Source: an uncultured candidate division Zixibacteria bacterium (lineage in GTDB: Bacteria > Zixibacteria > MSB-5A5 > GN15 > FEB-12). From it: a DNA stretch of 64,000 nt. Made by a program: the position numbers. Location of the stretch: positions 224,001-288,000 of the forward strand of contig CAVTJJ010000003.1 in assembly GCA_963735035.1 (NCBI GenBank), in the 5' to 3' direction. Positions within the stretch are counted from its first letter, which is position 1, and the number at the start of each line of letters is the position of its first letter. Positions 12,001-48,000 of the stretch are shown piece after piece.

Positions 12001-15000
12001 CGCGATACGCGCCGAACTGAGCCGACCAGCGGGGTCCCAGTTGGCCGAATCGATGAAGACCAAAGTGCTCTCCTGAGCTGAACAGACAAATTCAGGCTCT
12101 TGGTAGTCTGGGCACCACGTCAAATCCCTCCCTATCCCTCAGATACTCTTCCTGCGGCGGGTGCAAATCTGGCGTGTAACATGATTATAGCATTGACTGT
12201 TGGCTCTAACCGACCAAGATTACCGGTAACCTAAGGACCCGGCTGAGCATCTATGGAACGAATGCGAATCGATCAGGATCGCTTTTGGCGACTTTTAGAA
12301 CCAGAGTACGAACGAGGTATGATGTTCTGCCGCAAGTTGATAGGTGACCGCGACCGAGGTGACGATCTCTTCCAGGACTCACTGGTAATCGCCTGTACCA
12401 GGTTGCGCGACCTGCGGGACGAAGCTTCGTTTCGACCCTGGCTCTACCGAATATTCGTCAACACTTTCAAGAGCACGGTCCGACGACCCTGGTGGCGGCG
12501 ACGAACAGAGTTTACTCCTGAGTTGGAGTCGCGTCTGCTTCTGGTTGACCCTACCGATCAATTGTCGGCCCGGCGCTGGTTGGATCGGGCGTTTCAGGCG
12601 GTATCAGTAGACGATCAGGCGCTGATTACTTTGCACGAACTCGATGGCTGGCCCTTGGCCGAACTGGCCCAGCTCTTTGGCAAGACCGAAGGCGCTATCA
12701 AGATTCAGATCTTTCGGGCGCGCCGCGATATCAAGCTCGCCCTTCAGAAACAATGGCGAGCCAAGGCAACACCCGTGCGATCCGTTTCAAACCCCGCGAG
12801 GGAACAATGCACTGTACCGAAGCCAGAAACCGAATAGATAACACCAAGAGCCTATCCGCTCTTGCGGACGATCTGGAGTTGCAGGTTCATTTAGAAGACT
12901 GTGATGACTGTCGGGCGTATGCCGTTCTGGTGGAATCATTCGAGAAGGCCTTGCATGCGGCTTCGGCCGACGACACTGTTCCCGGTCTTGCTATCGATGA
13001 ACAACGGCGAGCGGTAGAATTGCGACTGCATTCGGGTCGACGCGCAATGCGTGGTGCCACGCACCCTCATCTTTTGGCACGTCCGGCCTGGAGGCTGGCA
13101 GTGTCGGGCGTAACGATTGTCCTGGCGGCCTTTCTATTTATCCCCTTCACGCGGTACCAAACGGTCGGCTATGATGTCAGCGTCGACGGTACCTGCCTCG
13201 AAGTGGCGGTAAACCATGACCGTATTTGTGACCTATTGGGAAGACTGGGCCTGGACGAAGCCGGCGTGGACGTGATCGGCTGCGATACCACTTGCTCGGT
13301 TTCGATATTGGACCTAAAGACCGAGCACGAAGCCAGAATGGTGGTGGGTGCAATCGCCCATATGTGCGAGAAGAAGCTGAGTTCTAGCATCGTGCCGATT
13401 AGAGCCAAATCGACCCAGACCCTGCTGGAGCAGGCTAACGATCTGATACTTCGAAGTGAATCGTAGATAGAACATCGGGGCGCCACGGCGGCACCGTCCG
13501 AACAGCAACCCGACTTACACAACTAAAGACGAAACCGGGGCTCGCCGGATCGAGGCCCCAGGAAGATTGAAGTATGCCCAGGACACTAATGGCAATAACA
13601 ACTATCTTGATAGCCGCCTTCATCGGCAGCGCTGTCAATGCCGCGCCACTGCTGGCAATCGATCAAACGGATTTTGACTTTGGCTTCGCGCCGCAGAACT
13701 CCAAGGTCAGTCATATTTTCCAGCTTCGAAACGACGGAGATGACACTCTCCGCATAGCGCGGGTGGTGCCGGGTTGCGGTTGCACCCAGGCGCCGCTGGC
13801 CGACTCGATTCTCGCCCCGGGGCAAAGCACTCAATTGGAAATCATCTTCAGCACCGGTCACTACAATGGAGCAGTCACTAAACGCCCCAGAATCGAAACC
13901 AACGAATCTTCAACGGCGAAGTTCGTCGCGATAACGACCAATGTTGCTCAACGTCCCGATTCAACGTATCCGGTCCAAGTTCGGCCGTACAAATTAGATA
14001 TGTCGCAGTTTGGGGAGACGGTTCGCGATCAGATGAAATTCACCATCGCCAACGTCTCCGATAGCAATCTGGGCATCACGTTGGTCAGTTGCCCCGACAA
14101 GATGATGTCCATTGAGTTGCCCGAGGAAGTTCCGGCCGGGGGAAGCGTCGACGCGATAGCGAAACTGTCACCGTCAGCCGCGAAGTTGTCGTTCGAGACC
14201 TCATTCACGATACAGCTCGGCGATGCCGCGAAAACGCGGTTTACTATTCCAGTGAAACGCACTATGAAATCACCCGGACAGGTCGCGGTCGATCCCAAGA
14301 CCAACCAGACAAAGCCTTAGTCCTATCCTTTCGAAGAGAAACGGTCGGTCACGCCTGGCGCGACCGACCGTTTGTCATTTCTGTTAGAATTCTTAGAGGC
14401 AATTGGGAAGAATACTATTGGTCGGTCCGGTAATGAACAAATAATCAATGAGTAACGTAATGTCGCCGATGGTCACGTTCTCCAACAAAGGATGAAATCC
14501 TCCCGATTGATTGACATCGGCCTCGGCCATGCAGGCCACGGGGGTAGTGCTGATGAACAGCATGTCAATCATGACGGTAATGTCGCCAATAGTCGGCTCG
14601 TCGCCGCCCGCCCCGTTGGCATCACCTACCCGAGCGAGACAACATCCAACAACCAGGTCGCAAACCGTAAAGTCGTAGTTACACCAGGGTTCGAAATCTA
14701 TGTCGTCTCCCACCAGGTCACCATTACCGTTCGGATTAGTGACATGAGTCGGGCCAAGATCGGAGCCCCAGTAGTTGCGCTCGGCCATCGCCCCAAAGGT
14801 CGAATTGGTCCAAAAGCCGTACGCATTGCCGTGGATTCGATTATGGGAGGCACTGACGCTGGCCGCAGCGCCATCGTTGTAGGCCACGACGCCGATGTCC
14901 CAGCCATGAATGTCAGAATCCAACAAAGTCGTAATGGCAGTCTCTCCCAGCGCCCAGGTGGCCACACCGTAAGATCCCGTGGTCCCCACGCCGGTAAGAT

Positions 15001-45000: not shown

Positions 45001-48000
45001 GGTTTATGTCTGCCTCGAGTAGACACCCTATGATACCATCACAAGAACCAGTGATAAACTTGGCGTCGATCAGCACGCTGACATCGCCTATGGTTGGTTC
45101 ATCATCTCCGCTGTTGTTGGAGTCGCCAACCCTGCCGACACAGCATCCCACCTGGCATTGCCCGGCCTCACCGTAAACCCAGAATGCCGGATATTTGGTC
45201 ATGCCAAGAACGGCGGCATCATAACAGACCCCGGAAGGCTGAGTCCTGATCCAGTTCTCGCAGGCCCCGGCGGTGGGACTATTGAGTTCCCGTCCGGGCC
45301 CCGGAGCCCCGGAGTGATGGAATTCCAGCCCGATGAAAAACGGCTGGTCGACGCAGCATTGACCGTCCGAAAACTGAAATTGACTGGGAACGGAATCGTT
45401 CCCGGTCGCCGAGGTCGTAAACCGAAATAGCTCCACCCCGGGGCCATCACACGAATCCCCGGCCGGAATGATGTCGTAAACGACGATATCCACGTCCTGC
45501 GTCGCGGTATTTCCTCCAAACATGAACCGGAAACCACCAAGTTCGAAGGGATATGGAGAACTACCGCAATCTACTGCCGGATTGTAGAAGGTGTACAGCC
45601 CTTCACCTGCCACAAAACCGCTCAGAAAGACCCAGGAGTTGTCTCCGGTTGTGTTAGTCATGACACAACTGTAGACCGGAGTGCACGGATTGGGATCACA
45701 GTCGGTGTTGTCACCCATGTAGGTTCCTCCCTCCGCTGCACATTCGGCCTGGGTGCTGATCGAGCAAGTACCGAACGGATCGCAGCAGGCGCCCGGTACC
45801 CGACAAAGCCCCGTCTGACCGTCAATCCAGAATGCCGGATAATAGGCGAAGCCGAAATTGATGGCATCGATGAAACTTCCGCCGGTCAGGATGTAGTTCT
45901 CGCATCGGTTCGCCAGAGGCGGGCTGACCGTCTGACGGGCCGGACCCGGCAGGCCGCTGTGTTGAAACTCCAGCCCCATGAAAAAGGGACCGTCGACACA
46001 AAGCGCGCCCGGTAGGAAGTTATAGAGTTGGGGAGTGGAATTGTTTCCCCGCACCTGAATCGACGTGCGAAAAAGCTCCGCGCCCGGCCCCAGGCAGGAG
46101 TCCGAGGAAATGGCATCGTAAGCAACAATGTCGACAATCACCTGACTGGCCGCTCCGCCCATCATGAATTGGAACGAGAGGACCTCATACGGATAGGCGG
46201 CCGTCCCACAATCTTCACTCGGGTTGAAGAACGTATATATTCCCTCGCCGGACACGAACCCTGCCTGAAAGCTCCACGAGGTAGTCGAGGTCACATTGGT
46301 CATGCGGCAGGGCGCGTCAGTATTGAGAGATACGATCGGGGCGGAAGAGACAGAGCCGGTCACCAGCAGAACGATCGCAGCCGCGAAAACACGGCGCGGT
46401 ACCCTCGGACGGACATTCACATACAACGCTCTAAAGAACACGACTCACCTCCCTGAGATTTGTACAGGCGCGATGGAACAGAGCCCCGAACGGGGCCCAC
46501 CCGCGCGGAAAGAGCGACCCTCATAGGTCGAGCGACTATCTTACTCTAATGGAATAATATACCAACGATGCCACGATTGTCAAGCTTAGAAAGGAGATAC
46601 CGCCTCTGAGAGCCAACGCGTTGTTACCGGCCACGAAGTATCCCTCGAGGGCATGGCCCACAAGGGATTGATTTGGTGCGGAGGGGGGATCTGAGCCCCG
46701 TAGCGACTTCGCAGAATTTCGTAGGGCGGAACCCCTTGGTGCCTGCTCGCTTTGGCGAGGTTCGGCCGTTCGTATCGGGACTATAAAGGTCCCGACCTAC
46801 AAGGCCGTTCTCACAAACAGTTCGGCAGACCAAGCGTCGGGCCGGTGACAAACAAATAGTCGATCAAGACTGAAATATCACCAATCGTGATATCTCCCGC
46901 AGTTGGATTCGCACCGCCCGACTGATTGATATCTGCCTCGGTCAGGCATGAGATCACTCCAGTATTACCCGAAATGAACAGCGCGTCGATCAAAACTGAT
47001 ATGTCGCCAATAGTTGGCTCATCACCGCCTGCGCCGTTGGCGTCGCCGACCCTGCCGACACAGCAGCCAAGCGAACCAAGAAGAGGCCAGTACCCCTGAC
47101 TGGATTGAAAGCTCGCAGACGTACCGAAGCCGGCCGCAGCCTGAGCAGCGCTCGCACTGACTTTGAAGCTGGTCGAAGTACCTACCGTTCCTCCGGATGA
47201 AATCACCTGTCGCGTAAACTTGTAATTATCAGCGAGGACAATTCCGGCAACGATGAATAAAACGAGCGCTGTGCGCCAACACAATCTGAATATCTGGTTA
47301 ATCATGCTGTCAACCTTCTTAATAGGTTCTTCTTGTACTAGCATAACGTCTGGACTGGCTCTTCGGGGAAGCCTTCACGACCTCTCACCTCAGGCCACAA
47401 ATGGAGGGCTACCCTTCAACTACAATCAATGTTCGTCGCTGCATTGCGATGAACTAAACTCTATATCCTTAAAGATCTCAAGTTTTCGGACATCAGTAAC
47501 TCGCTGGCATTCCCAGACAAAAGCAGGACTCCCGTCAAGAATCCCATACGTACCTGCGACGTAATCAAATTCAGCTTCGATCAAGCGGTCTTTCTCATCA
47601 ACTATCATCTTCTCTACATGGAGAATTTGAGTCTTGTCGAGACCAACGGCGCTTCCTAACCTCTTCCACGCTGCTTCAGGTTCGGCTATTCTGGCCTTGA
47701 GGTAGGGTTGGAAATACTCAGAGAACTCGTCTCTAATCACCATTTGAACGAGGTCCTCCTGGATTTCTTGATCGCCGTGCATTGACGTAAAGAAGACGCT
47801 GTCGCCAACTATCTTCTTATAGAAAATGTATCGCACCTCAAGCTTCGGTGCAAGCGCGTGATCAAGAGCGTCGAGACGGCTAAGGACCATAGCTTCGGCA
47901 CCGACTCCAAAGGGACATTGGCTCATTACAAAGAGCTCTATCGTGTTGTCTTTGACTTTCAGAAACGCCGACACCTCCAACTGACCTTCTACCTTCATTG

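Follow-up and report, generated by a model that had tools for sequence, protein, structure and literature searches.

A predicted dockerin variant missed by domain libraries on putatively exported proteins of an uncultured Zixibacteria bacterium, with cohesin modules on T9SS cargo as candidate partners

Clostridial dockerins are mostly C-terminal, and in solved complexes the dockerin helix motif contacts the cohesin. Non-cellulosomal cohesin-dockerin modules, which a survey by Peer et al. in 2009 reportedly covers, are found as few modules per genome. Zixibacteria are a widespread uncultured phylum of sediment and groundwater. The open-access literature (PMC, bioRxiv) yielded no paper linking them with dockerin, nothing relevant among the matches listed for cellulosome and cohesin, no paper on their type IX secretion (T9SS), and nothing relevant on dockerin in Latescibacteria or on disulfides in dockerins in connection with the calcium-binding loop. 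For Cloacimonadota, a system of dockerins and cohesins with an anchor of T9SS type has already been proposed; there, a cellulosome-like complex of 'Ca. Stygibacter' was inferred from genomes alone (Williams et al. 2021, PMC8542988). In the passages of that paper that describe the complex, the dockerin-tagged enzymes include peptidases, the cohesin protein has a conserved C-terminal domain for which a T9SS review is cited, and the scaffoldin is a single 3,755-aa protein with tandem cohesins and CBMs, its dockerins being visible to InterPro.

The window analysed here is a 64,000-nt stretch of an uncultured candidate division Zixibacteria bacterium (GTDB lineage Bacteria; Zixibacteria; MSB-5A5; GN15; FEB-12), positions 224,001 to 288,000 of the forward strand of CAVTJJ010000003.1 (assembly GCA_963735035.1). 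An initial annotation had described a hidden dockerin variant of ~84 residues, here called the tail, in 67 copies in 66 ORFs, 61 of the copies lying no more than 5 residues from the stop and 11 in one interval of the window, with 260 representatives at E<=1e-30 among 1.84 billion sequences. An HMM was seeded with the 11 tails of 14393-47344 and run against every stop-to-stop frame of the whole genome. It found 67 domains in 66 frames (79.5-165.7 bits), followed by scores of 62.0 and 45.7 bits, which belong to one broken copy in two frames at the end of C6; no further score exceeds 41 bits. The earlier figures are thus reproduced, with 62 of the 67 copies ending at most 5 residues from the stop and a similar count of 243 representatives at the same threshold. 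All 11 carriers in 14393-47344 are on the minus strand, and a twelfth lies elsewhere in the window:

3833..5713, minus strand: carrier with M43-like metallopeptidase and PKD, outside the earlier interval; tail 3833-4087
14393..17443, minus strand: right-handed beta-helix carrier; tail 14393-14647, without the optional cysteine pair
18241..20718, minus strand: carrier with DUF7948 and SBBP beta-propeller; tail 18241-18495
20770..21837, minus strand: carrier without a Pfam family on its passenger; tail 20770-21024
21859..23022, minus strand: NosD-like beta-helix carrier; tail 21859-22116, one residue short of the stop
23108..27043, minus strand: 1311-aa carrier without a Pfam family; tail 23108-23362
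33240..33929, minus strand: 229-aa carrier with signal peptide and short low-complexity passenger; tail 33240-33494, the highest-scoring copy
35754..38516, minus strand: carrier with DUF5122/Rax2-type beta-propeller; tail 35754-36008
38727..41198, minus strand: carrier without a Pfam family; tail 38727-38981
41521..42399, minus strand: PKD carrier, its gene possibly broken because the frame has no signal-like start; tail 41521-41790, with a linker 5 residues longer
44888..46441, minus strand: carrier without a Pfam family; tail 44888-45142
46811..47344, minus strand: small carrier of 177 aa; tail 46811-47065, without the optional cysteine pair

Tails share a mean identity of 60% (2211 pairs), and any blastp similarity is seen in 98 of 1653 pairs of passengers. 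Judged by these comparisons, the tail is a module common to unrelated proteins. Pfam matches across the 66 carriers identify proteases, beta-propellers, beta-helices and repeat proteins as passengers, with peptidase domains on 13 carriers and no glycoside hydrolase family on any. A search for sequencing runs covering window positions 33240-38516, as a source of RNA data, listed none.

Neither Pfam nor NCBIfam matches the tail in any of the 12 window carriers (E<=0.1), and Pfam matches it in none of the 54 carriers elsewhere in the genome (E<=0.001); it fails to reach the gathering threshold of PF00404. The sole Dockerin_1 match among carriers falls in L103, on a distinct canonical module that precedes the tail. 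A PDB sequence-profile search with the tail returned no dockerin, the only hit being a chance match to ribosomal protein S8 (E 0.044). The absence of the tail from both libraries and from PDB sequence matches, as annotated before, therefore stands. Domain libraries can lose an entire system in one lineage: 67 modules are here annotated as nothing.

The relationship to dockerins emerges from profile and structure comparison. With hhalign, the 67 tails align over 66 columns to 17 dockerins that Pfam defines in this genome (probability 99.1%, E 8.3e-19). An AF2 model, made from a 12-row alignment with the tail of the 33240..33929 carrier as query, is of middling confidence (pLDDT 69.5; 94 for the earlier model). 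When it was compared with 48,161 chains by VIA-align, all 11 rows with Z>=5 were dockerins, as were rows 1-14, the top row being 4fl4_A (Z 7.8, rmsd 2.4 A, 68/68 residues) and the first unrelated row having Z 2.9. Among the structural matches of the tail is 2ozn, Clostridium perfringens NagJ/NagH. As a lead only, 12 of 30 tail feature matches in the ESM Atlas fall in clusters in which 70% of members carry PF00404. The hidden dockerin variant of the initial annotation is thus supported by both hhalign homology and VIA-align fold, and on this alignment and model the tail is a true, lineage-specific dockerin homologue.

Alignments also indicate an internal duplication. Both halves of the tail have D-x-N ... 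T-I-G-D and then a helix with L-I-D-x-x-F-I, so that, as far as the alignments tell, the loop-helix duplication seen in type I dockerins is retained. The helix motif is nearly the same as in several canonical dockerins of this genome, and in the second helix conservation reaches >=80% at nearly all positions. Compared with canonical loops of 12 residues, loop 1 is ~2 residues longer (~14) and loop 2 ~7 longer (~19). In the loops, conservation is >=80% at positions 1 and 3 and at the last Asp; position 5 is Ser in loop 2 and variable in loop 1, where its non-acidic character is a point against predicted calcium binding by the tail.

Six cysteines are found in the tail, of which cysteines 3 and 5 are jointly present or jointly absent in 217 of 218 domains. 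Both are present in 38 and neither in 29 of the genome's own 67 copies, and among 151 representative domains the figures are 129 and 21, with one domain having only one of the two. They covary as a disulfide would, and the tail is predicted to hold up to three disulfide cross-links, of which one is optional. The six cysteines with their covarying pair, together with calcium-binding TSP_3 repeats in 10 of the 54 carriers outside the window, would also fit a mere calcium- and disulfide-dependent folding module that stabilises its carrier and has no specific partner. However, surface positions of both helices are conserved over the 218 domains beyond folding needs, and such a module would not be expected to recur at one end of 66 unrelated proteins; this explanation is scarcely credible.

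The position of the tail bears on a second alternative, in which it is chiefly a sorting or export tag read by a secretion or attachment machine (compare T9SS, PEP-CTERM and LPXTG) and the dockerin fold has been reused. Besides the 62 of 67 own copies near the stop, 48 of them exactly at it, 144 of 151 representative domains are C-terminal, and the many copies per genome, unrelated passengers and narrow lineage are in keeping with a tag. So is the mutual exclusion claimed earlier between tail and T9SS sorting domain (TIGR04183 / PF18962), which holds here, with none of the 51 frames that carry the latter among the 66 tail frames. A secretin locus of T2SS/T4P type, scoring under every NCBIfam equivalog cut-off, adjoins one carrier. 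However, clostridial dockerins are equally C-terminal by habit, and five of the 67 copies end 173-682 residues before the stop; two of these come straight after the signal peptide and are followed by 274 and 682 residues. A cleaved C-terminal sorting signal was down-weighted because of these internal and N-terminal copies. No dedicated processing gene recurs next to carrier clusters, and the idea that a dedicated outer-membrane translocon is encoded next to the carriers was dropped because the beta-barrel-like ORF at 43136-44380 is a singleton, without a paralogue near other carrier clusters. A role mainly in sorting is accordingly considered improbable.

Candidate partners are found on T9SS cargo. 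The T9SS components SprA (531 bits) and PorU (667 bits) are both present in the genome over their cut-offs. By whole-protein PF00963 score, cohA (41.8 bits) and cohB (28.7) exceed the cut-off of 24.1, cohC (23.1) and cohD (23.0) fall just under it, and cohE (16.1) and cohF (15.3) score lower. The cohE model (pLDDT 91.6) has 50 Foldseek matches at E<=0.001, of which the best 25 are all cohesins; among the 41 matches listed, 4 are other beta-sandwich adhesins. Its structural matches include 2xdh, an Archaeoglobus fulgidus cohesin. All six proteins carry Por_Secre_tail, and cohA-cohF have the features of T9SS type A cargo, which none of the 66 tail carriers has. The five cohesin proteins of the initial annotation (C4:139784-142222, C4:143537-144967, C4:1510977-1512095, C3:845418-847700 and C6:415941-416771) all carry Por_Secre_tail, in agreement with the earlier statement that they end in a T9SS domain. 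The restriction of cohesins to T9SS cargo is true of the five full-length Pfam matches; it does not extend to all 12 PF00963 places at E<=0.1, six of which are in frames without a T9SS tail, one of those being partial and inside a tail carrier. Dockerin-like modules of their own are seen in cohA, cohB, cohF and C1 paralogues. Each cohesin protein has one or two cohesins, and CBMs are absent from the matches on these proteins. As the Pfam matches of the carriers also include no glycoside hydrolase, the arrangement differs from CAZymes on a multi-cohesin, CBM-bearing scaffoldin, and the carrier system is not a cellulosome.

The same genome has canonical Dockerin_1 modules in 21 frames (13 places over the Pfam cut-off). 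In 14 of them the module is C-terminal and no T9SS tail is present, which gives the cohesins alternative potential partners. Each of 16 genomes from three sister families has 53-119 Dockerin_1 matches; the range is 7-47 in the host's family, and genomes of the host's genus have 17, 7 and 14, against 78, 30 and 69 matches of the tail (0-5 in sister families). Since the sister families have their 53-119 dockerins visible to Pfam, the tail would be a genus-level replacement within an order-wide expansion. By these counts, the dockerin system is hidden from Pfam only in the host's lineage, and the fact that canonical dockerins become fewer as the tail increases speaks for replacement rather than for a new role. 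Cohesin proteins are found across the order (cohE in 25/26 genomes, cohC in 40/41, cohA in 41/41, cohB in 35/41 and cohF in 41/41), with 1-14 cohesin matches per genome; cohD is, like the tail, restricted to the genus. Thus, five of the six do not co-vary with the tail, as they are present in genomes without a tail match, and the co-occurrence of cohD and tail, which amounts to one lineage, is weak.

These distributions could also be read as a tail that is a dockerin by descent and no longer binds these cohesins, which would be served order-wide by canonical dockerins while the tail has another common partner (a surface glycan, a protein or itself). The persistence of the canonical dockerins, the lack of co-variation with five cohesin proteins and the rebuilding of both calcium loops are all in line with such a loss, as is a protein with canonical dockerin and tail in tandem (C5:3828-6737), where the two would be redundant if they bound one site. 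However, the near-identity of the helix motif to that of canonical dockerins, their drop where the tail increases and the genus restriction of cohD run against it, and it is judged fairly unlikely.

The preferred reading is that of a lineage-specific dockerin by which Sec-exported carriers dock on T9SS-exported cohesin proteins. A signal-like start is present in 58 of 66 carrier frames as against 801 of 1753 control frames, a crude test, as 46% of the controls pass too. The carriers would undergo Sec export, fold in an oxidising compartment and then reach the outside by some further route, where the tail would bind cohesin modules on T9SS-exported proteins that are probably fixed to the surface. 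The outcome would be a surface assembly other than a cellulosome, with proteases and adhesin-like proteins probably hung on partner modules at the cell surface, and within the genus the variant would largely replace Pfam-visible dockerins filling the same role in sister families. Taken as a whole, including replacement in the genus, this appears to have slightly better than an even chance of being correct. For the earlier proposal that dockerin-tagged enzymes dock on T9SS-anchored scaffolds, tail homology, fold and the T9SS tails of the cohesin proteins are borne out, and the docking itself is conjectural.

A more far-reaching possibility is piggyback export, in which carriers would fold, form disulfides, dock in the periplasm on cohesins of T9SS cargo and cross the large SprA pore as a complex, reaching the surface already assembled without a T9SS signal. 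This would, if true, explain the outer-membrane crossing of 66 proteins, why the two tails are never together and why cohesins are on T9SS cargo only, and is judged very unlikely. A milder version would have the stapled tail and cohD, the cohesin protein confined to the genus, evolve together as a pair separate from the canonical system of the order. The crossing of the outer membrane by carriers is a question open to test with few recombinant modules. If docking is true, Zixibacteria use cohesin-dockerin parts to build a large T9SS-anchored assembly on their surface, made of proteases and adhesin-like proteins. At some 50-120 dockerin proteins and 1-14 cohesin matches in each genome, it would rank among the largest systems of this type apart from the cellulosome, and would do so in a diderm. 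A naturally disulfide-locked dockerin may also interest users of cohesin-dockerin pairs as assembly tools.

Compared with type I dockerins of the clostridial cellulosome (PF00404; 4fl4, 2ccl, 5nrk), the tail has the same duplicated loop-helix and three-helix fold, and is likewise mostly C-terminal, in tens of copies on unrelated passengers, with cohesins in the same genome. It differs in lying under the Pfam threshold, in loops of ~14 and ~19 rather than 12 residues and in up to three predicted disulfides, while the host is a diderm and, by Pfam, its carriers bear peptidases and repeat proteins but no glycoside hydrolase as passengers. The T9SS type A sorting domain is also C-terminal, of ~80 residues and in tens of copies on unrelated exported proteins; however, it is a beta-sandwich, whereas the tail is helical, is also internal and N-terminal, and is never on the same protein. 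'Ca. Stygibacter', as far as the relevant passages of its description go, is likewise an uncultured host with genome-inferred dockerin-tagged proteins, including peptidases, and cohesins with a T9SS-type tail, whereas the Zixibacteria bacterium has several proteins of one or two cohesins, no CBM seen on them, 67 dockerins invisible to Pfam and no glycoside hydrolase on the carriers. The Archaeoglobus fulgidus and Clostridium perfringens pairs share with the present system the occurrence of cohesins and dockerins apart from the degradation of plant cell walls, but 67 variant dockerins and ~21 canonical frames are found here, and genomes of sister families have 53-119 Dockerin_1 matches each.

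A C-terminal module of ~84 residues, here called the tail, is common to 11 minus-strand ORFs of 177-1311 aa at window positions 14393-47344, and a twelfth carrier lies at 3833-5713. An HMM of the 11 tails was searched against all 50,744 stop-to-stop frames of the 3.6-Mb genome (six contigs, C1-C6, with the window at C3:224001-288000). It finds 67 domains in 66 frames (79.5-165.7 bits), followed after a score gap by one broken copy (62.0 + 45.7 bits) and weak matches of at most 41 bits. The repeated tail described in the initial annotation is thus confirmed, with 62 of the 67 copies ending within 5 residues of the stop. 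Mean identity among tails is 60% (2211 pairs), but blastp similarity of any kind is seen in only 98/1653 pairs of passenger parts (the remainder of each carrier), indicating that a single conserved module is shared by proteins that are mostly unrelated. Of the five copies that are not C-terminal, two come directly after a signal peptide and are followed by 274 and 682 residues. The module therefore appears to work independently of position, and these five copies speak against a cleaved C-terminal sorting signal. The tail has no Pfam or NCBIfam match in any of the 12 window carriers (E<=0.1), and no Pfam match in any of the 54 remaining carriers (E<=0.001). Among ten public clusters examined, two have a name, "hypothetical protein".

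The tail was earlier identified as a hidden dockerin variant, and this is well supported by both profile homology and fold. Canonical Dockerin_1 (PF00404) is found at 22 places in the same genome at E<=0.1, 13 of them above the Pfam cut-off. Profile-profile alignment of the 67 tails with 17 canonical modules of the genome gives a probability of 99.1% (E 8.3e-19). The helix motif T-I-G-D-I-S-x-L-I-D-x-L-F-I is almost identical in the two types, whereas the first loop is ~2 and the second ~7 residues longer in the tail. Modelled by AF2 from a shallow alignment of 12 rows, the tail has three helices (pLDDT 69.5). When the model was compared with 48,161 PDB representatives, without a Foldseek prefilter, rows 1-14 were all dockerins (4fl4_A: Z 7.8, rmsd 2.4 A, 68/68 residues), and the best non-dockerin chain reached Z 2.9.

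Across 218 tail domains, of which 67 are the genome's own copies and 151 come from public representatives, six cysteine columns are conspicuous. Columns three and five are jointly present or jointly absent in 217/218 domains, and the remaining four are near-invariant. This covariation is the sequence signature of a putative dispensable disulfide, joining the inter-repeat linker to the loop 2 insertion. The predicted pairing is Cys3-Cys5, with Cys1 and Cys2 bonded to Cys4 and Cys6. The tail would form disulfides and bind calcium, and folding outside the cytoplasm is to be expected of such a disulfide-bearing module. In the same 218 domains the second helix is near-totally conserved, surface positions included, which points to one common partner.

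The carriers appear to be exported. By a crude hydrophobic-start test, a signal-like N-terminus is present in 58/66 tail frames, compared with 801/1753 control frames; judged by eye, several of the eight failing frames do have a clear signal peptide, and others resemble gene fragments. Passengers are peptidases in 13/66 carriers (M64, M14, M4, C1 x2, S8 x2, C10 x2, M1, M43 x2 and one trypsin-like). Pfam also identifies one Amidase_3 and three Fib_succ_major passengers, TSP_3 repeats in 10/54 carriers outside the window, and beta-propellers, beta-helices, PKD and fn3 domains. The passenger belongs to no Pfam family in 28/66 carriers, and no glycoside hydrolase family is among the Pfam matches of the 66.

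The carrier cluster of the window is broken up by housekeeping-like ORFs on the opposite strand (27307-33153, plus), which by eye resemble pyruvate kinase and the two subunits (small and large) of carbamoyl-phosphate synthase. Also lying among the carriers is an ORF of 414 aa (43136-44380, minus). It encodes a signal peptide, ends in ...V-T-V-R-F, and has no Pfam or NCBIfam match and no paralogue in the genome; such an ending is typical of outer-membrane beta-barrels. A 489-aa protein with a coiled-coil tail (33986-35455, minus) weakly matches the NCBIfam Bdellovibrio mosaic adhesive trimer fibre N-terminal domain (E 6.7e-8, below cut-off). It has three paralogues, each adjoining a small tail carrier (177-237 aa) in a repeated gene pair of fibre plus small dockerin protein:

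Window 48580-50490, minus strand: fibre-like paralogue
C3:984389-985954: fibre-like paralogue
C4:563-2581: fibre-like paralogue

Cohesin (PF00963) matches and a type A sorting domain of the T9SS occur together in six proteins:

C4:139769-142222: cohA
C4:143537-144967: cohB
C4:1510977-1512215: cohC
C3:845418-847712: cohD
C6:415941-416771: cohE
C4:136508-139231: cohF

The Pfam cohesin cut-off is exceeded by cohA and cohB, and cohC and cohD fall within about 1 bit of it. There are two cohesin modules each in cohA, cohC and cohD and one each in cohB, cohE and cohF. cohE consists of a signal peptide, a cohesin and the sorting domain in 276 aa; its cohesin model (pLDDT 91.6) has 50 Foldseek matches at E<=0.001, of which the best 25 are cohesins. 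Core parts of the T9SS score above cut-off (SprA, C6:283569-288173; PorU, C6:247653-250907). According to the abstract of one review, the T9SS is limited to Bacteroidetes (PMC11611037); no open-access paper joining Zixibacteria and T9SS was found. Genome-wide, the sorting domain is present in 51 frames, and none of the 51 carries a tail, so the earlier observation that the two never overlap holds. The accompanying claim that cohesins occur only on T9SS cargo is true of cohA-cohF, but 6/12 PF00963 places (E<=0.1) are in frames without a sorting domain:

C1, a small contig: three fragmentary cohF paralogues
C6:52059-52872: frameshifted cohesin gene, with the sorting domain in the next frame
One weak match, 14.4 bits
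C3:117426-120773: partial 17.9-bit match within a tail carrier, an M14 carboxypeptidase

The broken gene at C6:52059-52872 is small and consists of two overlapping frames, with two tail carriers 2 kb away. In cohA, cohB, cohF and the C1 paralogues, the cohesin is directly followed by a dockerin-like module (by Pfam E-values of 0.012 and 0.0045 in two cases and by weak local matches over the full length in the rest); with dockerin-like modules of their own, these proteins resemble adaptors of a layered assembly.

Rival dockerins of this genome complicate a docking model for the tail. Canonical dockerins occur in 21 frames, at the C-terminus without a T9SS tail in 14 and inside a T9SS protein in four. 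One canonical dockerin gene (C4:134954-136195) sits within the cohesin cluster. The protein at C5:3828-6737, with a DUF7901 passenger, has a canonical Dockerin_1 (30.2 bits) and directly after it a stapled tail, so that two dockerin types are naturally combined in one protein.

PF00404 matches number 53-119 per genome in 16/16 genomes of three sister families and 7-47 in 24 other genomes of the family, with 17 in the present genome. Tail-profile matches number 78, 30 and 69 in the genomes of the genus, 1-69 elsewhere in the family (24/24 genomes, best E 1e-15) and 0-5 in the sister families (6/16 genomes); for the weaker family-level forms, Pfam matches were found in 0/5 proteins (E<=0.1). Cohesin matches are present in 41/41 genomes, at 1-14 each. 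Thus, many dockerins and few cohesins are the rule in the order, and in the genus the stapled variant has taken the place of most Pfam-visible dockerins. Strong genus-type tails (129 and 123 bits) are also found on two short contigs (2006 and 1601 bases) of an "uncultured Ignavibacteriales" MAG, where a binning error is more likely than a second phylum.

The cohesin proteins cohE (25/26 genomes), cohC (40/41), cohA (41/41), cohB (35/41) and cohF (41/41) are old. In many genomes of the order, the gene row cohF, cohA, 413-aa ORF, cohB (C4:136508-144967) is conserved in this arrangement on a single contig. Relatives have a cohB frame of about 840-950 aa, which is split here into 413 + 476 aa, probably through a frameshift or assembly error. 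Among the six, only cohD follows the genus (3/3 genus genomes, 0/22 other family genomes, and one 25%-identity match elsewhere). Being genus-restricted like the tail, cohD is a candidate cognate partner, although this is a single lineage, in which every gene specific to the genus would be distributed likewise.

In the most likely mechanism, the tail is a dockerin that kept its partner-facing helices and gained longer loops and putative disulfide staples. Cohesin modules borne by T9SS cargo would be its most economical partners. If the tail binds them and they are anchored at the surface, proteases and adhesin-like proteins would be arrayed there. Docking of the tail on cohesins is a plausible proposal. 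As to outer-membrane passage, the genome has three secretins. A GspF/GspE/secretin (GspE/F/D-like) locus with prepilin-type genes (C2:132566-142800) adjoins a tail carrier; it may be a T2SS or, equally, a type IV pilus, which its scores, all below NCBIfam equivalog cut-offs, do not separate.

Among open-access papers in PMC and bioRxiv, none was found that connects Zixibacteria to dockerins, cohesins, cellulosomes or type IX secretion, nor any on natural disulfide-stapled bacterial dockerins. The proposed architecture has a precedent. In a study of Cloacimonadota (PMC8542988), a cellulosome-like complex was inferred from genomes, with dockerin-tagged enzymes that include S8 and C25 peptidases. 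Its cohesin scaffoldin also has a conserved C-terminal domain, in connection with which a T9SS review is cited.
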